From Escherichia phage VpaE1_ev108, in the sequence record LR597658: a stretch of DNA of 64,000 bases, one strand, 5' to 3'. A model generated the notes under the pieces. It saw only the letters and a program-made list of their open reading frames with translations. It was not told where the DNA came from and did no database searches. Both the position numbers and the translations under genes were made by a program. Positions 20,942 to 38,234 of the stretch are shown piece after piece. Numbering within the stretch: position 1 is the stretch's first letter; each line of letters opens with the position of its first letter.

Positions 20942-20956
20942 AGCTTTCTCCTTAGA

Positions 20957-20994
20957 AAATAAAAAAAAAAAAAAAAAGGCTCCCGAAGGAGCCT
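20957..20994 (-). terminator. intrinsic terminator with 17-nt homopolymer run
   Basis: on the minus strand AGGCTCC-ttcg-GGAGCCT hairpin followed by T17 (A17 at 20961-20977 on plus). Confidence 0.7.
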
Positions 20995-21003
20995 ATGAAG
21001 ATA

Positions 21004-21468
21004 TTATTTTGGATATACACTGTCAAGATAAATGTCAGCTTCCATTCTACGTCTGTTTTTCAGGCCGTTTGAAGTGACCTTCTTACCTTTTACTGTGACC
21101 TTGTTCCACCACTGCATAGCTTCTGCACAACCGACCTTATTACCAGCATTGTGGCGCTTGATAAATGTAGAGTCCTGCATAGCTGTGATACCAATGTTGT
21201 ATGTTTCACTTACAAGTGCATCAAACTCATTCTGAGAAGTTGGAACCTTGATGGCTTTGTTCACTGCTGCAACGAACTTTTCAACATCTGCAAGAAGATA
21301 CTGTTCAGCTTGTTCAGCGGTAATCTTCATACCCATCTTAACAGGCTTCCCACCAATACGAATTGTCCCATACCCAATTGTGGGGATTCCAGCAGAATCT
21401 TCGTAAGCCTCAAGCTTAAGACCTTCAAAGAACTTAATAGCTTCTAAACCTTTTCTTGAGAGTTGCAT
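21004..21468 (-). CDS. endolysin, T4-type lysozyme (GH24)
   Basis: LEAIKFFEGLKLEAYEDSAGIPTIGYGT matches the catalytic Glu/Asp/Thr region of T4 lysozyme-family proteins. Confidence 0.8.
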   Translation of the reverse strand: MQLSRKGLEAIKFFEGLKLEAYEDSAGIPTIGYGTIRIGGKPVKMGMKITAEQAEQYLLADVEKFVAAVNKAIKVPTSQNEFDALVSETYNIGITAMQDSTFIKRHNAGNKVGCAEAMQWWNKVTVKGKKVTSNGLKNRRRMEADIYLDSVYPK

Positions 21469-22352
21469 TATGCCTCCCCTGCTGGGTTAACAGTAACTGT
21501 TGCTGCATTAGATGTTACAGAGCCACCTGCACCAGTAACTACACAGGTGTAGCTTCCTGCATCAGCAGCGGTTGCACCTTCTTTGGTGTAAGTTGCAGCA
21601 GTTGCGTCTGGGATGACTTCCTCACCTTTCTTCCACTGATAACCTGTTGCACCTGTTGCCACAACATTCAACGTTAAGGTCTCACCTTCATTGATTTCTT
21701 GATTGGTTGGCTGTTGAGTGATGACAGGAAGTGCATTCACAGTCACTGTTGCTGCATCTGAGGTAACACTTGTTCCACCCTCTCCAGATACAACACAAGT
21801 GTATGAACCAGCGTCAGAAGGTGCTACTGACTGTTTTGTGTAAGTTGCAGAATTGGCACTAGGGATGTCCTCACCATCCTTCTTCCACTGATATCCAGTG
21901 GCGTTAGTTGCTAGAATGCTTAGAGTAAGTGTGCCACCCTCATTGACTGTTTGACCTGTTGGTTGCTGAGTAATTGCTGGTGGCTTAATAGCATCCTTCA
22001 ACTTAGCATTCAACATTGAGAACGGCTTAACTCTTGCCAACCATTCACAGTAAATTGTGTCAACATCTTTACCATTGATGATTGCATACTGCAAATCCAT
22101 GAAGAAATCAGCAGTTCTCATCTGTGCACCAACACTGTAAAGCAATTCATCACTAAATGGAACTTTGTAGTCTGGTTTGTAGTCAAACTTCTTAACTTCT
22201 GCAATATCAGCTTCAGGCCAATACGAACTATAGGTAAGTGGTAAAATAGCCTCTTGATATGTTCTAAAATCATATCTCTTACCAGCCTTTACGTTCGCAA
22301 CGAAGCCCTTCACAAACTCTTTGAAGTCTGGGTAAGTCTTTGCTTTAATCAT
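21468..22352 (-). CDS. hypothetical protein with two C-terminal Ig-like repeats
   Basis: two ~85 aa repeats (..TGYQWKK.GE.IP.A..ATYTK......DAGSYTCVV.G.GG); N-terminal ~125 aa paralogous to next gene. Confidence 0.5.
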   Translation of the reverse strand: MIKAKTYPDFKEFVKGFVANVKAGKRYDFRTYQEAILPLTYSSYWPEADIAEVKKFDYKPDYKVPFSDELLYSVGAQMRTADFFMDLQYAIINGKDVDTIYCEWLARVKPFSMLNAKLKDAIKPPAITQQPTGQTVNEGGTLTLSILATNATGYQWKKDGEDIPSANSATYTKQSVAPSDAGSYTCVVSGEGGTSVTSDAATVTVNALPVITQQPTNQEINEGETLTLNVVATGATGYQWKKGEEVIPDATAATYTKEGATAADAGSYTCVVTGAGGSVTSNAATVTVNPAGEA

Positions 22353-22720
22353 TTCTTTTTAGCCTCTAAATGTGCGTTTAGTCTAAAATAACCTTTGTGA
22401 TGCGGAGATACATCACCAACAACAATACCTTTAACCTTATAGCCTTTACCAATTACATACTGGATATCCATAAGGAATCTTCCAAGACCAACAATATGGA
22501 ACATTGGATATAATAGATTCTCAGAATCTGGAATATTGATTTCAGGTTTGTAGGTGCGTTGTTCGCTTGTTGGTGTAATATCTTCTTCAGGCCATTTACT
22601 GAGTCTCCATGTCAAAGGTGTTGGGATAACATCATTAAGGTTGTACCTTTCACCATTTTGCACGGAATTGATATAGGATTGTAGGAAGCAATAAAAGTCT
22701 TTTGCACTCTTAGCTTTCAT
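22349..22720 (-). CDS. hypothetical protein, paralog of N-terminal domain of 21468-22352
   Basis: shared pattern MKAK..F..F......V..G.RY .. YKP .. LLY .. MDLQY.I..GK .. LNA.L. Confidence 0.5.
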   Translation of the reverse strand: MKAKSAKDFYCFLQSYINSVQNGERYNLNDVIPTPLTWRLSKWPEEDITPTSEQRTYKPEINIPDSENLLYPMFHIVGLGRFLMDIQYVIGKGYKVKGIVVGDVSPHHKGYFRLNAHLEAKKK

Positions 22721-22767
22721 TAAATATCCTTATAAATAGTTAAAGGGGCATCAGCCCCTATTCACAC

Positions 22768-23358
22768 TTAAGCTTTGGTCTTAAGTAGGTTCTTAAGTTT
22801 TTTAAGATTCATACTCTCATCAAACTTAAAACCAAATCCATTGACATAATCAATGAACTCGGATTTCTTACTGAGTGACAATGCGTAACTCATATCAAAG
22901 TTCTTACTTGTTTCTGCGTCTGGACTAGAGTTCACATCAAATGAAATTTCTGTAGGCTCTTGCTTACTTTTCCTCATATTATCAACCAACAAACATGTAT
23001 AGTTTGCTGGATAGAAGTTTACACTACCATCAACGTAGCTGTACTTATTATTATGGATAAGGTTGGAAAATACCTTAAGGAATGTTTCTGAGTCGTGGCA
23101 AACAAGTTTGAATTGGCTGCTCTCTCCAAGCGCAACTAATGAGTACGGACTTTCACTATCAAAGTCATAATTTGGATTCGATGCCGTCACTGTTACACGC
23201 ATCAAGTTATTAGCAATAGTCTTCTGTTTAAAAGAATTTTGAACATAGTGAAGACCTCTATCACACTGATTGACTAGCTCTTTAAGCAGGTCATTTGCAT
23301 ATGGTGAATTAATTGATACAGAGCCATCACTATTGTAATTAAAACTTACTGTTAACAT
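22768..23358 (-). CDS. hypothetical protein
   Basis: 196 aa ORF. Confidence 0.5.
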   Translation of the reverse strand: MLTVSFNYNSDGSVSINSPYANDLLKELVNQCDRGLHYVQNSFKQKTIANNLMRVTVTASNPNYDFDSESPYSLVALGESSQFKLVCHDSETFLKVFSNLIHNNKYSYVDGSVNFYPANYTCLLVDNMRKSKQEPTEISFDVNSSPDAETSKNFDMSYALSLSKKSEFIDYVNGFGFKFDESMNLKKLKNLLKTKA

Positions 23359-24430: not shown

Positions 24431-25846
24431 ATGAGCGAATTATTTAAACATGCGCACCTTCATGCAGGTCGAACTGAAAATGGTGCTATAAACCATACTT
24501 CATCAATGTCTGCTCTTGTAGACTTTTACAAAGCTGCGGGTTCTAGCCGTAGCAATGTAGAAATCTTACCAGACCTGTTCTACAAAGCTTTGCGTGAGGA
24601 TGTTGATGTTGCAGTTCGTATTTTGCTTCATATGCGAGATGTACGAGAGGGTATGGGTGAGCGTAAAGCTTTCCGAACCGTTTTGCTTCAAGCAATTGAA
24701 GATAAAGTTTTAGAGCCTACACAGGTTCTTCGCATTATGGATAAGATTGCAGAACTTGGTCGTTTTGATGACTTCAAAATCTTCGTAGGTACTCGTTTCG
24801 AGACAGATGCCTTCAAACATTTAGAAGCAGCATTACTAGACCCTGCAACAGCAGGTTTGGCAGCTAAGTGGTTACCACGAGTAAAACCACGTCATAAGCA
24901 GTTTGTAAAACGTTTCTGCAAGTTTGCCAACTTGAGTGAGAAAGAGTACCGCACACTGTTGTCTGCACTATCTGATACAGTTGAGCAAAAAATCTCTGCT
25001 AATGAGTTTGGTAAGATTGACTACAGTAAGATTCCTTCTCTTGCTGCTGCACGTTACCAAAAGCTGTTTAACCGTAAAGATGGAGAGCGTTACAAAGCTT
25101 ACATCGAGTCCTTATCAAAAGGTGAGACTAAGATTAACGCTGGTGCTGTTTACCCATACGATGTGATTAAATCTGTTAAGTATGGTAATGCAGATGTTGC
25201 TAATGAGCAGTGGAAAGCACTACCAAACTGGATGGCAGAAGGTGAAAACATCTTGTGTATGTCTGATGTATCAAGTTCAATGTCTTGGGTGAATTTTGGC
25301 TCCATTACTGCTCTGGATATTGGTGTATCACTTGCCTTGTATGTAGCAGAACGCAATACAGGTTGCTTTAAGAATGAGTTAATGGTTTATTCAACAAACC
25401 CTCACTTCATCGAACTGAGTGGTGATTTACGAAACCGTCATCGTCAGGTGATGCGACACGTTGAATATGGCTCAACTAACTTACAAGCAGCTTTTGACCG
25501 CATTCTTGAAACAGGTAAAAGAAACAACTTGACTCAGAAAGATATGCCAAGTAAGCTTATCATCTTCTCCGATATGGAGTTCAATCAGGTTGATGGAGCT
25601 AACGGTCGTACAAACTTTGAAGCAATTCAGAGTAAGTACAAAAAAGCTGGATATGAGATGCCACAACTGGTATTCTGGTACTTAGCAAACCGTAATGGTA
25701 CTTGCGAAGTATCTGTTAAGGATAACGGTGTAGCAATGGTATCAGGGTTCTCTCCAGCCACTTTAAAAGCTCTGCTTGGTGGTGAGAAGTTTGACCCAAT
25801 CAGCGTAATGCTCAAAGCAGTAATGATTGACCGTTATATCTGGTAA
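24431..25846 (+). CDS. Ro60/TROVE-like protein with C-terminal vWA domain (MIDAS motif)
   Basis: GENILCMSDVSSSMSW (DxSxS MIDAS, cf. Ro60 ..DVSASM as recalled), GSTNLQAAF, LIIFSDMEFN vWA motifs; ~270 aa helical N-terminal region; GAGAG SD. Confidence 0.6.
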   Translation: MSELFKHAHLHAGRTENGAINHTSSMSALVDFYKAAGSSRSNVEILPDLFYKALREDVDVAVRILLHMRDVREGMGERKAFRTVLLQAIEDKVLEPTQVLRIMDKIAELGRFDDFKIFVGTRFETDAFKHLEAALLDPATAGLAAKWLPRVKPRHKQFVKRFCKFANLSEKEYRTLLSALSDTVEQKISANEFGKIDYSKIPSLAAARYQKLFNRKDGERYKAYIESLSKGETKINAGAVYPYDVIKSVKYGNADVANEQWKALPNWMAEGENILCMSDVSSSMSWVNFGSITALDIGVSLALYVAERNTGCFKNELMVYSTNPHFIELSGDLRNRHRQVMRHVEYGSTNLQAAFDRILETGKRNNLTQKDMPSKLIIFSDMEFNQVDGANGRTNFEAIQSKYKKAGYEMPQLVFWYLANRNGTCEVSVKDNGVAMVSGFSPATLKALLGGEKFDPISVMLKAVMIDRYIW

Positions 25847-26011: not shown

Positions 26012-26088
26012 CTCTGTTTAGCTCAGCTTGGTAGAGCGTTCCGTTTGGGGCGGTAAGGCCGGAGGTTCAAGTCCTCCAACAGAGACCA
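26012..26088 (+). tRNA. tRNA-Pro (anticodon UGG)
   Basis: acceptor CTCTGTT/AACAGAG, T-arm GGAGG-TTCAAGT-CCTCC, loop ttTGGgg, encoded CCA. Confidence 0.6.
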
Positions 26089-26095
26089 AATTAAT

Positions 26096-26173
26096 GTTCC
26101 AGTAGACAAAATGGTAAAGTCACCACTCTTTCAAAGTGGATATCTGAGGGTTCAAATCCCTTCTGGAACGCCA
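26096..26173 (+). tRNA. tRNA-Glu (anticodon UUC)
   Basis: acceptor GTTCCAG/CTGGAAC, T-loop TTCAAAT, anticodon stem CCACT/AGTGG, loop ctTTCaa, CCA. Confidence 0.65.
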
Positions 26174-26178
26174 GTTTT

Positions 26179-26256
26179 GACAGAAGACCAATTACAGCAA
26201 ACTTAATCTTATTCATCTGAAGGTAAATCGGACAAAGAAGAGATTTGGTCTGGTCA
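26179..26256 (+). repeat. E1: conserved bulged-stem element (CAGAAGACCAA ... TTGGTCTGG)
   Basis: 5' block CAGAAGACCAATTACAGCAA and 3' block TTGGTCTGG form a 7 bp helix enclosing ~52 nt. Confidence 0.5.
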
Positions 26257-26264
26257 TTAAGAAT

Positions 26265-26341
26265 TGCGGGTATAGAGAAAGGGCGTCTCACATGTCTCAT
26301 TAGCATGGTATCGGCAGGTTCGACTCCTGCACCCGCCTCCA
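26265..26341 (+). tRNA. tRNA with CAU anticodon (Met, fMet or Ile-lysidine type)
   Basis: T-arm GCAGG-TTCGACT-CCTGC, acceptor with mismatch at pair 1-72, loop ctCATta, CCA. Confidence 0.5.
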
Positions 26342-26345
26342 AATT

Positions 26346-26415
26346 TACAGAAGACCGTTTACAGCAATATTTATTAAATTTTTAGCGGAAAAAATTGAAA
26401 GATACGGTCTGGTAA
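26346..26415 (+). repeat. E2: conserved bulged-stem element (CAGAAGACCGT ... ACGGTCTGG)
   Basis: same flanks as E1 with compensatory AA/TT to GT/AC change in the helix. Confidence 0.5.
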
Positions 26416-26425
26416 TACTAAACAT

Positions 26426-26502
26426 GGTTAGGAAGCACATAAGGTATGTGCGGTCGCCTGTTAAGCGAATGGCACAGGGTTCGAATCCCTGACTAACCGC
26501 CA
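26426..26502 (+). tRNA. tRNA-Asn (anticodon GUU)
   Basis: T-arm CAGGG-TTCGAAT-CCCTG, loop ctGTTaa, CCA. Confidence 0.65.
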
Positions 26503-26571
26503 AATTTAGGAGAGAAGCGATTGCTCACCGATTTGTAAGGTGCAAGTCCTTAGCCTGAATAGAAATTAAAT

Positions 26572-26659
26572 GTGTCGTTATCCCGTAGATGGTAGCGGTG
26601 GGGACTGTAAATCCCTTGTCATTGAGACTCGGTAGGTTCGACTCCTACACGGCACACCA
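26572..26659 (+). tRNA. tRNA-Tyr (anticodon GUA), long variable arm
   Basis: 88 nt; acceptor GTGTCGT/ACGGCAC, anticodon stem GGGGA/TCCCT, loop ctGTAaa, T-loop TTCGACT, CCA. Confidence 0.65.
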
Positions 26660-26664
26660 ATAAA

Positions 26665-26742
26665 GGTTATGTAGTTTAATTTGGTTAAAATACTCCCCTG
26701 TCACGGGAGATGATGAGGGTTCAAATCCCTTCGTAACCGCCA
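26665..26742 (+). tRNA. tRNA-Asp (anticodon GUC)
   Basis: anticodon stem CTCCC/GGGAG, loop ctGTCac, T-loop TTCAAAT, CCA. Confidence 0.7.
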
Positions 26743-26801
26743 ATTTTGAGAGGGCTATTTAGCCCCTCCCTTAAAGGGTTCTTACGAGTATTCTTTAAAG
26801 G

Positions 26802-26880
26802 AGCAGAAGACCAAATTCAGCAAGTTACTTAAAATTTCAAGCCAATTTAATTTTGAAAAATTTAAAACTTGGTCTGGCTC
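26802..26880 (+). repeat. E3: conserved bulged-stem element (CAGAAGACCAA ... TTGGTCTGG)
   Basis: same conserved flanks, ~54 nt AT-rich insert. Confidence 0.5.
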
Positions 26881-26888
26881 AACAAATT

Positions 26889-27024
26889 TACAGAAGACCG
26901 TTTACAGCAAAACTTAACAATCTATTTCTCCGGTAAAGAAAAGGCGAAGGTTCGATTCCTTCACTCGGCAGATGTCGAGTTGGTGTAATGGTAGTACTTA
27001 AGATGATAAACAACGGTCTGGTAA
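26889..27024 (+). ncRNA. E4: candidate structured RNA, bulged stem enclosing a tRNA-like T-arm (Y-RNA-like?)
   Basis: CAGAAGACCGT ... ACGGTCTGG helix; interior has perfect T-arm GAAGG-TTCGATT-CCTTC, a second hairpin ACTCG..CGAGT and D-loop-like AGTTGGTGTAATGGTAG, but no acceptor stem. Confidence 0.35.
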
Positions 27025-27170
27025 TTATCTTTGTAGATAAGTTATTAAGCTTACCTGTGAGTATGCGACCACAAAGGGTGAAAGGGTAAATTCTAGATTT
27101 AAACCCAAAAAGGCACATCGCTACAGACCTTAAGCAAGTCTGGGTAGCTTATCTACAAAGATAATTTAAT

Positions 27171-27246
27171 GGAAGTGTAGCAGAATGGTGATGCGGCAGA
27201 CTTTTAATCTGACAGGCGATGGGTTCGAATCCCTCCACTTCTACCA
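27171..27246 (+). tRNA. tRNA-Lys (anticodon UUU)
   Basis: acceptor GGAAGTG/CACTTCT, loop ctTTTaa, T-loop TTCGAAT, CCA. Confidence 0.6.
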
Positions 27247-27250
27247 ATAT

Positions 27251-27327
27251 GGTTCAGTCGCAGATAAGGTAATGCAAGGGTCTCATAAGCCCTATGAATG
27301 TGGGTTCGATTCCCATCTGAACCTCCA
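27251..27327 (+). tRNA. tRNA-Met (anticodon CAU; GGG/CCC anticodon stem)
   Basis: acceptor GGTTCAG/CTGAACC, loop ctCATaa, T-arm GTGGG-TTCGATT-CCCAT, CCA. Confidence 0.65.
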
Positions 27328-27328
27328 A

Positions 27329-27404
27329 GCTGGTATAGTTAAGAAGGTTATAACACTCCCCTGATAAGGGAACATCGGTGGTTCGATTCCACCTACCAGT
27401 ACCA
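27329..27404 (+). tRNA. tRNA-Ile (anticodon GAU)
   Basis: loop ctGATaa, T-arm GGTGG-TTCGATT-CCACC, CCA. Confidence 0.65.
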
Positions 27405-27411
27405 ATTTCAA

Positions 27412-27450
27412 TAAAGTTGTTGACATTGAGATGTGACTACTTTATAGTAA
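27412..27450 (+). promoter_or_regulatory. sigma70-like promoter internal to tRNA island
   Basis: AAAGTTG-TTGACA - 17 nt - TATAGT. Confidence 0.55.
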
Positions 27451-27651
27451 CCTTAGTTTTCGTTGCGTAGCGTCTATTTTGCAAATTTAAAATAAATGCA
27501 AACGACAATGTTTTTCTGGCAGTAGCTTGATAGGCTAAACACCAGTGAGGTCTTCCAATCCCTCATCAAAGAATTTGGCGTACTCGCCCACGGTATGATT
27601 AATAAGGTGGGCATCTTTAAGGGCTTTCTAAGAGAGTCTTTAAAGATTAAT

Positions 27652-27728
27652 GCACCCTTAGTTCAACTGGACAGAGCAAATGACTTCTAATCATTGAGTT
27701 ACAGGTTCGAATCCTGTAGGGTGTGCCA
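27652..27728 (+). tRNA. tRNA-Arg (anticodon UCU)
   Basis: acceptor GCACCCT/AGGGTGT, anticodon stem AATGA/TCATT, loop ctTCTaa, T-arm ACAGG-TTCGAAT-CCTGT, CCA. Confidence 0.7.
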
Positions 27729-27870
27729 ATTAGTTAGCAGATTACTTAGACGACCTAAGCGGGTCTTCCTGTAGGGAGGTGGTCTGTATCTCATGTTTTC
27801 CAGAACATGTAAATAATCTGAGAAGGGGCTTTACAGTGTTGAGATAATACGGTAAGCTTCGAATTATAGT

Positions 27871-27953
27871 ATGGGACGATGTTAAGACTCTAAGGCATGA
27901 GCAACGGCTTCCAACACCGTTTCAAAGGGGTTCAACTCCTCCGTCCCATGCCA
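27871..27953 (+). tRNA. tRNA-Trp-like (anticodon CCA), atypical 83 nt with enlarged D region
   Basis: perfect acceptor ATGGGAC/GTCCCAT, T-loop TTCAACT, loop ttCCAac, CCA; D-arm cannot be folded canonically. Confidence 0.4.
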
Positions 27954-27966
27954 AAATCTTATTAGG

Positions 27967-28054
27967 GGTAGGTAGCGGCTAATGGTAGCCAAACTGTCTT
28001 GAAAACAGTTGCCACTGTAGAGATACGGTGAGGGTTCGACTCCTTTACTTACCG
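27967..28054 (+). tRNA. tRNA-Ser (anticodon UGA), long variable arm, no encoded CCA
   Basis: 88 nt; anticodon stem ACTGT/ACAGT, loop ctTGAaa, 3-bp D stem, T-loop TTCGACT. Confidence 0.6.
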
Positions 28055-28210
28055 CCTAATAAGATTTAAAGCCAAGCTTCATTCGGATGTTGCTTTGGTA
28101 TCCCGCGTGTATTGTTGTACACACTGATAAAGCACCTAGTAGGTGTCACGGAGAAGAGATAATATCAAGCTCTCCAAAGGTTCTAGTCACCGGATTAAAC
28201 AAGACTATGC

Positions 28211-28233
28211 AAAGACCTTTTTAGGTCTTTTTA
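28211..28233 (+). terminator. hairpin plus T-run inside tRNA island
   Basis: AAGACC-ttttta-GGTCTT followed by TTTTAG; stem uses the same AGACC/GGTCT motif as the E elements. Confidence 0.35.
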
Positions 28234-28311
28234 GAGGGCTTCTAAGGTTATTACAGCTTGTTGTGGAACCTTGTTGCTTAGGTTCTTAGAAGTTCTCTAA
28301 AAAGATTTAAT

Positions 28312-28389
28312 GGGAGATTGACGGTAATTGGTAAACCTATCTCGCTTAGAACGAGATGTTTGAGGGTTCGAATCCCTTGTCTCCTACCA
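28312..28389 (+). tRNA. tRNA with UAG anticodon (Leu by anticodon; class-I length)
   Basis: acceptor GGGAGAT/GTCTCCT, anticodon stem TCTCG/CGAGA, loop ctTAGaa, T-arm GAGGG-TTCGAAT-CCCTT, CCA; short variable arm. Confidence 0.5.
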
Positions 28390-28396
28390 AATTAAT

Positions 28397-28472
28397 GCAG
28401 GTGTAGCAAAATGGTTATGCGGCTGACTCTTAATCAGTAAGACGATGGGTTCAATTCCCTCCACCTGTACCA
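28397..28472 (+). tRNA. tRNA-Lys (anticodon CUU)
   Basis: acceptor GCAGGTG/CACCTGT, loop ctCTTaa, T-loop TTCAATT, CCA. Confidence 0.55.
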
Positions 28473-28477
28473 AAAAT

Positions 28478-28553
28478 GGGGTCATAGTTTATATGGTTAA
28501 AATTCGAGTTTTGCAAACTTGGGAACTGAGTTCAATTCTCAGTGACTCCACCA
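28478..28553 (+). tRNA. tRNA-Ala (anticodon UGC)
   Basis: G3:U70 pair in acceptor stem, loop ttTGCaa, T-arm CTGAG-TTCAATT-CTCAG, CCA. Confidence 0.7.
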
Positions 28554-28559
28554 ATTAGT

Positions 28560-28634
28560 GCATCCATAGTTTAAACGGGAAAATTACAGTCTTCCAAACT
28601 GAGGTTGAGGGTTCGATTCCCTCTGGATGCTCCA
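28560..28634 (+). tRNA. tRNA-Gly (anticodon UCC)
   Basis: perfect acceptor GCATCCA/TGGATGC, loop ctTCCaa, T-loop TTCGATT, CCA. Confidence 0.7.
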
Positions 28635-28641
28635 AATTAAT

Positions 28642-28717
28642 GCTTCTATCGTATAATTGGCTATTACGGTTGCCTTGTAAGTAACTTATCAGGGTTCGAA
28701 TCCTTGTGGGAGCACCA
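28642..28717 (+). tRNA. tRNA-Thr (anticodon UGU)
   Basis: anticodon stem GTTGC/GTAAC, loop ctTGTaa, T-arm CAGGG-TTCGAAT-CCTTG, CCA. Confidence 0.65.
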
Positions 28718-28814
28718 ATTTAGAGGTCAAGTGAAAGACCGCTTTGAGTCAACTGAAGACCGTAACAAATTCCACGGAGTTGAGTTAGCGGCACAACTCC
28801 AGACCTCTTCTCAC

Positions 28815-28889
28815 ACTCGCTTAGTTTATATGGTAAAACACCACCCTTACAAGATGAAGAAAAAGGTTCAAGTCCTTTAGTGAGTACCA
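28815..28889 (+). tRNA. tRNA-Val-like (anticodon UAC), weak anticodon stem, possible pseudo-tRNA
   Basis: acceptor ACTCGCT/AGTGAGT, D-arm GTTT..AAAC, loop ctTACaa, T-arm AAAGG-TTCAAGT-CCTTT, CCA; anticodon stem pairs only 3 of 5. Confidence 0.4.
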
Positions 28890-28890
28890 T

Positions 28891-28968
28891 GTTCCAGTAT
28901 CCCAATTGGCAGAGGATGCAAGCTCAAACCTTGTACTAGTGACGGTTCGAATCCGTCTTGGAACACCA
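28891..28968 (+). tRNA. tRNA with CAA anticodon (Leu by anticodon; class-I length)
   Basis: acceptor GTTCCAG/TTGGAAC, anticodon stem GCAAG/CTTGT, loop ctCAAac, T-arm GACGG-TTCGAAT-CCGTC, CCA. Confidence 0.5.
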
Positions 28969-28973
28969 ATTTT

Positions 28974-29049
28974 GCAGGATTAGTTCAAATGGATAGAGCA
29001 ACAGTCTACGAAGCTGTTAATAGGGGTTCGAATCCCTTATCCTGCGCCA
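28974..29049 (+). tRNA. tRNA-Arg (anticodon ACG)
   Basis: perfect acceptor GCAGGAT/ATCCTGC, D-arm GTTC..GAGC, loop ctACGaa, T-loop TTCGAAT, CCA. Confidence 0.7.
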
Positions 29050-29068
29050 ATTTAAAGAGGCTATTTAG

Positions 29069-29626
29069 ATGAGATATTTGAAGTATGCTTCATGGATTTT
29101 CTTAGCTTTGTTAGAACCATTTGCAGCAATCTTAGCAGTTATCTTAGCACCTTTTGTAGTTCCATTCTACAGTGAGAAGAAAGGACACTTACCTTTCGGG
29201 TTCAGATGGATGGAGACATATGACAACCCAATTGATGGTGATGAAGGTCACGTTAAAAGATGGGCTAATATTAGATGGATTGGTAAACTAGGTGTCTACA
29301 TGCAAAGAGTCGGATGGCTCTGGAGAAACAAAGCTTATAACTTCTCTTACCATGTGTTAGGAAGAGATGTAAAAGATGTTACTAAGTGGAAAGGTAATAT
29401 CAACGTAAGTTCTAACCCTGAAGATAATCAGACAGGTTATCTCCTAATGTGGAACAGTAATGCTTGGGGATTATTCGCTTTTACCCCATCAATTAAAATC
29501 TTTGGTAAACAGTTTTACTGGAGAATTTATATTGGGTGGAAGCTAAAAAGTGTTGTCCCAGAAGAAAGAGCATTCTCAAGGGAAAGAGTTATGTTGGCAT
29601 TCTTTATTCATCCACTAAGAAAGTAA
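29069..29626 (+). CDS. hypothetical Trp-rich membrane protein embedded in tRNA island
   Basis: 185 aa ORF; N-terminal hydrophobic segment WIFLALLEPFAAILAVILAPFVV; AAGAGG SD; TTA/AGA-rich codon usage unlike structural genes. Confidence 0.55.
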   Translation: MRYLKYASWIFLALLEPFAAILAVILAPFVVPFYSEKKGHLPFGFRWMETYDNPIDGDEGHVKRWANIRWIGKLGVYMQRVGWLWRNKAYNFSYHVLGRDVKDVTKWKGNINVSSNPEDNQTGYLLMWNSNAWGLFAFTPSIKIFGKQFYWRIYIGWKLKSVVPEERAFSRERVMLAFFIHPLRK

Positions 29627-29634
29627 AGATTTAA

Positions 29635-29710
29635 AGGGGATTAGTTTACAAGGTTAAAACCTCGGTCTTTGAAATCGAAGAAGTTGGTTCAATTCCAACA
29701 TCCCCCGCCA
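29635..29710 (+). tRNA. tRNA-Gln (anticodon UUG)
   Basis: anticodon stem TCGGT/ATCGA, loop ctTTGaa, T-arm GTTGG-TTCAATT-CCAAC, CCA. Confidence 0.55.
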
Positions 29711-29712
29711 AT

Positions 29713-29791
29713 GCTCCATTACTCCAATTGGCAGAGAGGCCAGACTTAAAATCTGTGTTATGTATCGGTTCGAATCCGATATGGAGTACCA
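29713..29791 (+). tRNA. tRNA with UAA anticodon (Leu by anticodon; class-I length)
   Basis: acceptor GCTCCAT/ATGGAGT, loop ctTAAaa, T-arm ATCGG-TTCGAAT-CCGAT, CCA; variable region about 8 nt. Confidence 0.45.
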
Positions 29792-29796
29792 AATTT

Positions 29797-29872
29797 AGCG
29801 GTATAGCATAACTGGCAATGCAGCAGCCTCTGAAGCTGTCCTATTAAGGTTCAAATCCTTATGCCGCTGCCA
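29797..29872 (+). tRNA. tRNA-Gln (anticodon CUG)
   Basis: anticodon stem GCAGC/GCTGT, loop ctCTGaa, T-arm TAAGG-TTCAAAT-CCTTA, CCA. Confidence 0.6.
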
Positions 29873-29903
29873 CTTCTAAGGATTCTTGCGAGAGTCCTTA
29901 AAT

Positions 29904-29979
29904 GTGGCCTTATCATAAACGGTAATGACCCATGCTGTGAACATGGTCTATACGGGTTCAAATCCCGTAGGTCACCCCA
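29904..29979 (+). tRNA. tRNA-His (anticodon GUG)
   Basis: anticodon stem CCATG/CATGG, loop ctGTGaa, T-arm ACGGG-TTCAAAT-CCCGT, CCA. Confidence 0.65.
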
Positions 29980-29984
29980 ATTTA

Positions 29985-30061
29985 TAGTCCAAGTAGCTTA
30001 TATGGTTAAAGCGCGTGTCTGAAAAACATGAGAAGAGGGTTCAAATCCCACTGGACTACCA
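29985..30061 (+). tRNA. tRNA-Phe (anticodon GAA)
   Basis: perfect acceptor TAGTCCA/TGGACTA, loop ctGAAaa, T-loop TTCAAAT. Confidence 0.6.
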
Positions 30062-37127: not shown

Positions 37128-38234
37128 ATGTTGACTAATTCTGAAAAAAGCAGATTTTTCCTTGCTGACCTGACTGGTGAAGTCCAGTCTATCCCAAATA
37201 CTTATGGGTATATTTCCAACTTAGGTCTGTTCCGTTCAGCACCAATCACCCAAACTACTTTCCTTATGGACTTGACTGATTGGGATGTTAGCTTGCTTGA
37301 TGCGGTAGACCGTGATAGCCGTAAAGCAGAGACTAGCGCACCTGAGCGTGTTCGTCAAATCAGCTTCCCAATGATGTACTTCAAAGAAGTTGAAAGCATC
37401 ACTCCTGATGAAATTCAGGGTGTACGTCAGCCAGGCACTGCAAACGAACTGACTACTGAAGCTGTAGTACGTGCTAAGAAGCTGATGAAGATTCGTACCA
37501 AGTTCGATATTACTCGTGAGTTCCTGTTTATGCAAGCTCTGAAGGGTAAAGTTGTTGATGCTCGTGGTACTCTGTACGCTGACCTGTACAAGCAGTTCGA
37601 CGTTGAGAAGAAGACTATTTACTTTGACCTTGACAATCCTAATGCTGATATCGACGCTTCTATTGAAGAACTGCGTATGCACATGGAAGATGAAGCTAAG
37701 ACTGGCACTGTAATCAACGGTGAAGAGATTCACGTAGTTGTTGACCGTGTATTCTTCAGCAAACTGGTTAAGCATCCTAAGATTCGTGATGCTTATCTTG
37801 CACAGCAGACTCCACTGGCTTGGCAACAGATTACTGGTTCTCTGAGAACTGGTGGTGCTGACGGCGTTCAGGCTCATATGAATACTTTCTACTACGGTGG
37901 TGTTAAGTTTGTCCAGTACAACGGTAAGTTCAAAGACAAGCGTGGTAAGGTTCACACTCTGGTTAGCATTGACAGCGTAGCAGACACTGTTGGTGTTGGT
38001 CATGCTTTCCCTAACGTAGCTATGCTGGGTGAAGCTAACAACATCTTCGAAGTTGCATATGGTCCATGTCCTAAGATGGGTTACGCAAATACACTTGGTC
38101 AGGAACTGTACGTATTCGAATACGAAAAAGACCGTGACGAAGGTATTGACTTCGAAGCTCACTCTTACATGCTGCCATACTGTACTCGTCCTCAGTTGCT
38201 GGTAGATGTTCGCGCTGACGCTAAAGGCGAATGA
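37128..38234 (+). CDS. major capsid protein (putative)
   Basis: 368 aa ORF at canonical position after protease/scaffold; high-expression codon bias. Confidence 0.6.
   Translation: MLTNSEKSRFFLADLTGEVQSIPNTYGYISNLGLFRSAPITQTTFLMDLTDWDVSLLDAVDRDSRKAETSAPERVRQISFPMMYFKEVESITPDEIQGVRQPGTANELTTEAVVRAKKLMKIRTKFDITREFLFMQALKGKVVDARGTLYADLYKQFDVEKKTIYFDLDNPNADIDASIEELRMHMEDEAKTGTVINGEEIHVVVDRVFFSKLVKHPKIRDAYLAQQTPLAWQQITGSLRTGGADGVQAHMNTFYYGGVKFVQYNGKFKDKRGKVHTLVSIDSVADTVGVGHAFPNVAMLGEANNIFEVAYGPCPKMGYANTLGQELYVFEYEKDRDEGIDFEAHSYMLPYCTRPQLLVDVRADAKGE

Follow-up and report, generated by a model that had tools for sequence, protein, structure and literature searches.

Two related genes stand back to back on the minus strand of the 64,000-nucleotide stretch of Escherichia phage VpaE1_ev108 analyzed here (record LR597658; hereafter the window), directly ahead of an endolysin gene, and the longer of the two encodes immunoglobulin (Ig)-like repeats that the shorter lacks. 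The original prediction proposed a role for the pair in lysis or at the virion surface, and the question that the locus raises is which of these, if either, applies to each protein. Our analysis shows that the longer protein is a head decoration protein seated at the centers of capsid hexamers in Felix O1-type phages, named Hex-Dec in phage Bas63. Overall, we consider it probable that the locus encodes a Hex-Dec ortholog together with a short paralog that acts as a dispensable, non-virion accessory factor for head assembly or decoration.

A pair of paralogous genes upstream of the endolysin

The 2.5 kb region containing the locus is 95-98% identical to many Felixounavirus genomes (97.6% nucleotide identity) and, judged by sequence, the source of the window is a Felix O1-like myovirus of the genus Felixounavirus. 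Three back-to-back minus-strand open reading frames (ORFs) were found, the two paralogs at the coordinates given in the original prediction. In coding-strand order, these are a gene for a protein of 123 amino acids (aa) at 22349-22720, the gene for the Ig-bearing protein of 294 aa at 21468-22352, called the downstream copy in the original prediction, and a gene of 154 aa at 21004-21468, encoding a GH24 endolysin (PF00959, E value 6.7e-41; phrog_7, endolysin). The same three genes are present in Felix O1 as ORF37 (123 aa), ORF36 (294 aa, annotated as "tail protein") and ORF35 (endolysin), of which ORF36 and ORF37 have been sequenced since 2000.

Alignment of the two N-terminal regions confirmed the suspected paralogy: the shared domain of ~120 aa is 36% identical over 101 aa (BLASTP, E value 3e-15), and phrog_4463 and phrog_3995 each match both proteins in reciprocal profile searches. 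The Ig-like nature of the extension on the longer copy was likewise borne out by Pfam, which identified Ig_3 (E value 2.5e-22), Ig_2 (E value 2.1e-19) and I-set (E value 8.6e-16) in two stretches each of the 294 aa protein.

The 294 aa protein is a hexamer-center head decoration protein

Sequence searches of the PDB matched the 294 aa protein to Bas63 Hex-Dec (9NCF chain S, 460 aa, E value 3.3e-248) and to gp20 of phage Sf14 (9C2D and 9C3A, chain S, 372 aa, E value 3.6e-165). The protein is collinear with both (9ncf_S and 9c2d_S) from residue 1, without gaps through residue 122, and phrog_3995 matches it over its full length (E value 2.5e-170). Cryo-electron microscopy (cryo-EM) identified Bas63 Hex-Dec and Sf14 gp20 as monomeric Hoc-like decoration proteins at capsid hexamer centers (PMC12609058, PMC11821841). 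They are found only on the pentamer-adjacent, quasi-3-fold hexamers at the facet edge and on none of the true 3-fold hexamers, so that 60 of the 80 hexamers of the T=9 head are occupied (PMC12609058, PMC11821841).

In Sf14, three of the six major capsid protein (MCP) subunits are contacted by gp20 through salt bridges that link its Arg79 and Arg107 to their Asp221 (PMC11821841). Both arginines are present in the window protein (..AQMRTAD.. and ..WLARVKP..), and the binding partner is also conserved. The MCP encoded at 37128-38234 on the plus strand (9ncf_A, E value 3e-247; 9c2d_A, E value 5e-234) is 99% identical to the Felix O1 MCP, gp58, and retains Asp221 (...PKIRDAYL...) with no indel before residue 221. 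The likeness to the Bas63 and Sf14 systems extends from the collinear capsid-binding domain (CapBD), the two arginines and the Ig repeats to the 99% identical partner MCP and the position of the gene upstream of the endolysin. In addition, mass spectrometry detected the Felix O1 ortholog, gp36, in virions purified on cesium chloride (14 peptides, 44% coverage; 2010). Orthology to the solved structures, together with these proteomic data, shows that the 294 aa protein is the hexamer-center head decoration protein of Felix O1-type phages, and it is hereafter called Hex-Dec. The nature of this protein was already published (2010 proteome; 2025 cryo-EM), and the virion-surface role originally proposed for the pair holds for this member of it.

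By reference to the orthologs, the CapBD formed by the N-terminal ~120 aa (residues 1-122, 21987-22352, minus strand, as delimited by ungapped alignment to Sf14 gp20 and Bas63 Hex-Dec) would insert as a monomer into the centers of the 60 pentamer-adjacent hexamers, anchored in part by salt bridges from Arg79 and Arg107 to MCP Asp221. The two Ig-like domains would then project outward as a flexible fiber; those of the Bas63 and Sf14 proteins were too flexible to be resolved by cryo-EM (PMC12609058, PMC11821841). By analogy with T4 Hoc, we infer that this fiber may function in adhesion to mucus, glycans or cell surfaces, or in control of particle aggregation. The Bas63 Hex-Dec gene lies more than 10 kb outside the structural module (PMC12609058); the window gene is also outside this module, immediately upstream of the GH24 endolysin gene and ~15 kb from the MCP gene, which is on the opposite strand.

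Comparison with T4 Hoc revealed both a common mode of action and a different anchor. Like Hoc, Hex-Dec displays tandem Ig-like domains from the capsid, recognized here from Pfam and from PHROG matches labeled as Hoc-like head decoration (phrog_2973, E value 4e-29; phrog_4069, E value 7e-27), which are restricted to the Ig region (residues 120-292). In contrast to Hoc, in which the CapBD is C-terminal, the CapBD of Hex-Dec is N-terminal, and Hex-Dec occupies only a subset of hexamers. The Hex-Dec CapBD was also found to be larger than that of Hoc, topologically distinct and pseudo-C2 symmetric, with a reversed domain order (PMC12609058). The Hoc-like PHROG matches leave residues 1-119 uncovered, and no Hoc chain was returned when a CapBD model was compared with the PDB and BFVD. 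Given the reversed domain order, the distinct topology and the lack of any Hoc chain among the results of the fold searches, we conclude that Hex-Dec works like Hoc through an anchor that is not homologous to the Hoc anchor. The likeness to T5 pb10 (PDB 5LXK, 8ZVI) is confined to the displayed part: the pb10 Ig domain matches residues 132-207 of the 294 aa protein (E value 1.6e-12), whereas the capsid-binding domains show no sequence or fold similarity. Phage T5 also differs in having a T=13 capsid in which every hexamer is occupied (PMC5292684).

Hex-Dec relatives differ in the number of Ig-like domains

Ig-like domain 1 (residues ~123-207, 21732-21986, minus strand; Pfam Ig_3, Ig_2 and I-set) aligns to Ig1 of Bas63 Hex-Dec and is followed by Ig-like domain 2 (residues ~208-294, 21471-21731, minus strand; Pfam Ig_2 at 209-288 and I-set at 209-283). 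The two repeats, compared over residues ~124-207 and ~208-290, are 70% identical in amino acid sequence (E value 7e-38) and 67% identical in DNA sequence, and Tandem Repeats Finder detected no DNA tandem repeat behind the duplication. Window residues 125-292 align to residues 292-458 of the Bas63 protein, comprising Ig3 and Ig4, with the part pairing Ig2 with Ig4 nearly identical; of the four Ig domains in the Bas63 protein, the one most similar to window Ig2 is thus Ig4, at the C terminus. From these alignments, the two-Ig form in the window is equivalent to Bas63 Ig1 plus Ig4. Two Ig-like domains are also present in Felix O1, Moogle and Sf13, as compared to four in Bas63 and three in Sf14, and the sampled Hex-Dec relatives had lengths of 210 aa (one Ig), 294 aa (two) and 377 aa (three). 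A range of one to four Ig domains within the genus was already documented in the Bas63 study (PMC12609058), and the two-Ig form found here is one of these published variants.

The short paralog is predicted to be a free-standing capsid-binding domain

The 123 aa protein is the ortholog of Felix O1 ORF37, VpaE1 gp40 and Sf13 gp23 and is 98-100% identical to many Felixounavirus proteins. It is matched over its full length by phrog_4463 ("unknown function", E value 3.4e-80), the Felix O1 ORF37 family, of which it is a plain member with no distinguishing difference; peptides of the protein include DFYCFLQSYINSVQNGER and FLMDIQYVIGK. In the PDB, its sequence matched 9ncf_S (E value 1.2e-11) and 9c2d_S (E value 5.2e-11). 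An AlphaFold2 model built from a diverse alignment (A5) reached a predicted local distance difference test score (pLDDT) of 76 and a predicted template modeling score of 0.75, replacing a discarded model from a shallow alignment (A2) with a pLDDT of 53. The only significant PDB matches of the retained model were again 9c2d_S and 9ncf_S (TM score 0.70-0.71), the next match having an E value of 0.36, and a BFVD search with the model returned Ounavirinae proteins only. As modeled, the short paralog is a single CapBD fold, covering exactly the resolved CapBD of 120-122 residues. The chain stops at residue 123, directly behind the CapBD; it contains no Ig domain, and Pfam returned no match.

Length and sequence are tightly conserved within this family. 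Among 21 aligned cluster representatives, the short paralogs are 120-124 aa long, most of them 122-124 aa, and 67 columns are invariant, including the block PMFHIVGLG. As compared to the Bas63 and Sf14 proteins, the short paralog consists of the CapBD fold only, without Ig domains, and the arginines that contact the capsid in Sf14 are replaced, Arg79 throughout and Arg107 mostly. Across all members examined, an invariant glycine (Gly78) takes the place of Arg79; opposite Arg107, the window protein has histidine, most orthologs have glutamine and only a metagenomic relative (L011, described below) has arginine. This divergence from Hex-Dec is suggestive without being decisive. Net charge and isoelectric point did not separate the short from the long CapBDs and are therefore uninformative on binding to the acidic hexamer center.

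Broader searches gave no functional lead. PADLOC and NCBIfam contained no match for the short paralog or for the 196 aa gene upstream of it, and an exhaustive profile search of 1.84 billion representatives recovered only 12 clusters, all Ounavirinae-like. Several short paralogs are named "Tail protein" in UniRef, which implies that the similarity to Hex-Dec was picked up automatically. The short paralog is not mentioned in the structural papers on Bas63 and Sf14 (PMC12609058, PMC11821841), and a literature search found the name Hex-Dec in no further paper. In the literature searched, we did not find a discussion of the link of the short paralog to the CapBD or of its age, selection and pattern of loss.

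The short paralog is old, under purifying selection and dispensable

An intact short copy, defined as covering at least 80% of the query, was present in 232 of 252 matching phage records (Felixounavirus, Mooglevirus and Suspvirus), and ~19 of the 252 matched Hex-Dec only, such that ~8% of relatives lack an intact short copy. In phages REP11 and Z31, the short gene is a pseudogene with an identical lesion, comprising loss of the ATG, an internal deletion of ~220 nt and frameshifts, and the start of Hex-Dec is intact in both. Since REP11 and Z31 are viable, the short gene is not essential for plaque formation.

A separate feature of Z31 (L005, MN655999, 2498-3070) is a Hex-Dec gene interrupted in its single Ig domain, leaving a CapBD-only ORF of 134 aa and a 55 aa remnant, which may reflect either an error in sequencing or a naturally Ig-less Hex-Dec.

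Beyond these genera, a single CapBD gene lies between a gene of ~200 aa and the lysozyme gene in Erwinia Kolesnikvirus, in the "Listeria" phage LPML1 and in a metagenomic locus (L010), and the short paralog is absent from Kolesnikvirus and LPML1-type genomes. In three Logan metagenome contigs (L007-L009; 6001-6462 in L007), the sole gene of the CapBD family encodes a 153 aa protein with a lysine-rich C-terminal tail and no Ig or BIG2 domain. The module displayed by the decoration family is thus freely exchanged, being Ig, BIG2 or none. In contrast to these single-copy loci, an 87 kb metagenomic scaffold (L011) contains the complete tandem of short copy (122 aa), long copy (298 aa) and lysozyme, with the overlapping junctions kept and a short copy only 45% identical to that of the window. 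A neighbor-joining tree resolved the short copies as one clade and the long CapBDs as another, each with 100% bootstrap support and each including an L011 protein, indicating one old duplication with both copies kept since. The short paralog is found only in Felixounavirus, Mooglevirus and Suspvirus and in this one deeper metagenomic lineage.

Pairwise Nei-Gojobori comparisons over nine genomes gave a ratio of nonsynonymous to synonymous substitution (dN/dS) of ~0.15 for the short paralog, ~0.06 for the Hex-Dec CapBD, 0.13 for the endolysin and 0.12 for the upstream 196 aa gene. The short paralog is under purifying selection and is a working gene.

Two database records of relatives carry unexpected host names. 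OK283618 ("Listeria phage LPML1", L002) and GU169904 ("Staphylococcus phage SA1") contain Ounavirinae genes including this locus; the SA1 short paralog is 99% identical, and LPML1 is classified in Ounavirinae. These Gram-positive host labels look doubtful, possibly reflecting contamination or mis-assignment.

The short paralog is expressed late and is missing from reported virions

Reverse transcription-PCR in Felix O1 showed that ORF36 and ORF37 are both maximally expressed at 60 min, together with portal and tail-fiber genes, and that the genes on either side, ORF35 (lysin) and ORF38, reach their maximum at 25 min. The published list of 17 Felix O1 virion proteins does not include gp37, even though proteins of 9.7-13 kDa were detected. 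For VpaE1, the text of the paper singles out gp54, gp58 and gp68 alone as virion proteins beyond those seen in Felix O1, which would exclude gp40. The short paralog is also missing from the structural protein table of Sf14 (PMC11821841), whose supplements contain no mass spectrometry protein list, and no density was reported on the other hexamers in the cryo-EM maps of Bas63 or Sf14 (PMC12609058, PMC11821841). The proposed virion-surface role, borne out for Hex-Dec, is not supported for the short paralog, which is absent from the virion proteomes and maps reported for the relatives consulted.

Possible functions of the short paralog

From its fold, selection, timing and pattern of loss, the short paralog is probably a functional but dispensable CapBD-fold protein, produced late and not part of the virion. 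Such a protein may act inside the cell as an accessory factor in head assembly or decoration rather than as a stable virion component, and it might transiently occupy hexamer centers or escort or regulate Hex-Dec. A narrower proposal, which we put forward tentatively and with well below even confidence, is that the short paralog, descended from the decoration protein, serves head assembly or decoration as a non-virion factor in one of two ways. In the first, it would be a pseudo-C2 plug held transiently in the skewed hexamer centers of the procapsid and released or replaced at head expansion. In the second, it would pair with Hex-Dec and control when, and on which hexamers, Hex-Dec binds. In either version, a decoration-protein domain would have been reused as an assembly regulator, which might explain why Hex-Dec is present on only 60 of the 80 hexamers.

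Several observations weigh against the accessory-factor reading. The evidence that the short paralog is missing from virions is negative and does not prove absence: the Felix O1 virion list was compiled with a cut-off of at least 25% coverage, the absence of VpaE1 gp40 is inferred from the text, and icosahedral averaging can erase a component that is low in copy number or mismatched in symmetry. Some single-copy Hex-Dec homologs also lack Arg79, and the L011 short copy has an arginine at the position aligned to 107, so that loss of the arginines does not prove loss of capsid binding. In L007-L009, the Hex-Dec slot is taken by an Ig-less CapBD protein with no second family member, and a CapBD-only protein can thus plausibly decorate by itself. 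On the side of Hex-Dec, the location and contacts were transferred from the orthologs of Sf14 and Bas63 (Bas63 at 33-fold lower divergence) and were not observed in this exact phage, and no experiment shows a ligand of the Ig domains in any Ounavirinae phage.

The strongest competitor, although an unlikely one, is that the short paralog is a second, Ig-less decoration protein, perhaps of low copy number, at mature hexamer centers, for example at the 20 true 3-fold hexamers left free by Hex-Dec, or a competitor of Hex-Dec that tunes the number of Ig fibers per head. This would fit the fold, which is the same as that of the solved CapBD, as well as purifying selection, the late expression of the Felix O1 ortholog with Hex-Dec, the overlap of its stop codon with the Hex-Dec start, the lone CapBD protein of L007-L009, the truncation of Z31 Hex-Dec to its CapBD and the incomplete occupancy of hexamers. 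However, the short paralog is missing from the Felix O1 virion proteome, in which proteins of 9.7-13 kDa were detected, and goes unnamed among the VpaE1 virion proteins. The replacement of Arg79 by an invariant glycine and of Arg107 usually by glutamine or histidine also speaks against it, and a pseudo-C2 monomer would be a poor fit for a 3-fold-symmetric hexamer. Because the virion evidence is negative and a lone Ig-less CapBD exists in a distant lineage, this alternative is given a low but nonzero probability.

It is quite improbable that the short paralog has no function and is a remnant of the duplication heading for loss. The shared pseudogene of REP11 and Z31, the ~19 of 252 records without an intact copy, the absence from Kolesnikvirus and LPML1-type genomes and a rate of protein evolution about twice that of the Hex-Dec CapBD could all be taken as decay. 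In contrast, the dN/dS of ~0.15 is in the range of the endolysin, the length is nearly fixed with 67 invariant columns, and the Felix O1 ortholog is transcribed. Moreover, L011 has retained the gene with overlapping junctions at only 45% identity, and the short copies form an orthologous clade with 100% bootstrap support.

A role of both proteins in lysis, as holin-, spanin- or lysis-regulator-like factors, is very improbable and was rejected, having already been largely refuted for the longer protein. This reading drew on the directly adjacent GH24 endolysin gene with its start/stop overlap, on the conservation of this adjacency across Ounavirinae-like phages and on the lack of an annotated holin beside the Felix O1 lysin gene. 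However, neither protein has a transmembrane-like segment (maximum Kyte-Doolittle averages over 19 residues of 1.14 and 1.04, with none above 1.6), two cryo-EM structures and virion mass spectrometry place orthologs of the longer protein on the capsid and in the particle, respectively, and Felix O1 ORF36 and ORF37 peak late with morphogenesis genes, after the lysin. The endolysin gene keeps its position beside the CapBD gene or genes in all relatives examined, and we conclude that the endolysin is a neighbor rather than a functional partner, the adjacency reflecting conserved synteny in a small transcription unit.

Finally, existing labels would assign both proteins to the tail, with the short paralog in an accessory role: GenBank has "tail protein" or "putative tail protein", phrog_3995 carries the label "tail", UniRef uses "Tail protein" for several short paralogs, and gp36 was named "major tail protein" in the Felix O1 paper. 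This reading is scarcely credible and was rejected, since no tail-tube, sheath or other tail structural domain was found, including in Pfam, cryo-EM places the orthologs on the head at hexamer centers, and the Bas63 authors consider the annotation wrong in most Felixounavirus genomes (PMC12609058). The "major tail protein" PHROGs (phrog_158, 853 and 3575) match the Ig region only (residues ~96-208), and this restriction, shared with the Hoc-like matches, probably explains the mislabeling.

Implications for annotation and phage biology

For the longer gene, the main value of these results is its correct annotation as a head rather than a tail protein, which is relevant to the use of Felix O1-type phages in diagnostics and therapy directed at Salmonella and E. 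coli. Adherence to mucus, aggregation and immunogenicity can all be influenced by Hoc-like Ig fibers, which also make convenient display scaffolds. The short paralog is an ancient, selected and late-expressed copy of a lineage-restricted capsid-binding fold that is apparently not in the particle. If it does modulate Hex-Dec loading or procapsid maturation, it would be a case of a decoration domain turned assembly factor. Its restriction to one lineage and its dispensability in some isolates limit its general importance.

Organization of the transcription unit and neighboring genes

The three genes form a compact minus-strand transcription unit with overlapping starts and stops between two hairpin terminators. 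At the junction of the short paralog with Hex-Dec, the stop codon TGA overlaps the ATG (ATGA, 22352-22349), and translation of the two genes is probably coupled; at the junction of Hex-Dec with the endolysin gene, TAA overlaps the ATG by one base (TAATG, 21470-21466). The 5' boundary is a GC hairpin (GGGGC-TGAT-GCCCC followed by TTTA; 22745-22758, minus strand) that separates the short paralog from the 196 aa gene ahead of it. This hairpin is kept in REP11 and Z31, and its sequence appears among the rho-independent terminators tabulated for Felix O1. The 3' boundary, identified by a terminator scan, is a strong intrinsic terminator (AGGCTCC-TTCG-GGAGCCT followed by a long T run; 20977-20994, minus strand). 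The T run after this terminator is unusually long, at ~18 T (~20955-20976, minus strand).

A scan for σ70 promoters found 6 sites, fewer than the 8.4 in shuffled sequence, and we do not claim a promoter. A 12-mer, CTATTTATAAGG, lies at 22728-22739 (minus strand) between the upstream hairpin and the ribosome-binding site of the short paralog. The window contains 4 matches to it with at most one mismatch, as compared to 0.46 expected by chance, and the other sites are not obviously ahead of late genes.

The upstream gene (22768-23358, minus strand; phrog_4034) encodes a protein of 196 aa, and a counterpart of 185-207 aa lies ahead of the CapBD gene or genes in every case, in Felix O1 as in distant lineages. 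The gene is under purifying selection, and the sole annotation hint for the family is a "faint" Pfam match to Phage_Inh_N on the L007 homolog. Distant metagenomic relatives also keep the larger divergent order, in which a DUF2828 gene and a DUF5681 gene face away from the gene of ~190 aa, the CapBD gene and the lysozyme gene.

Farther along, a 471 aa gene (24431-25846, plus strand) is located directly upstream of an array of 24 tRNA genes (26012-30061, plus strand). The L007 homolog of its product carries DUF2828 and DUF7788, and the REP11 homolog is labeled "RNA-binding protein", raising the possibility that the 471 aa protein is an RNA-binding protein encoded beside the phage tRNA cluster.

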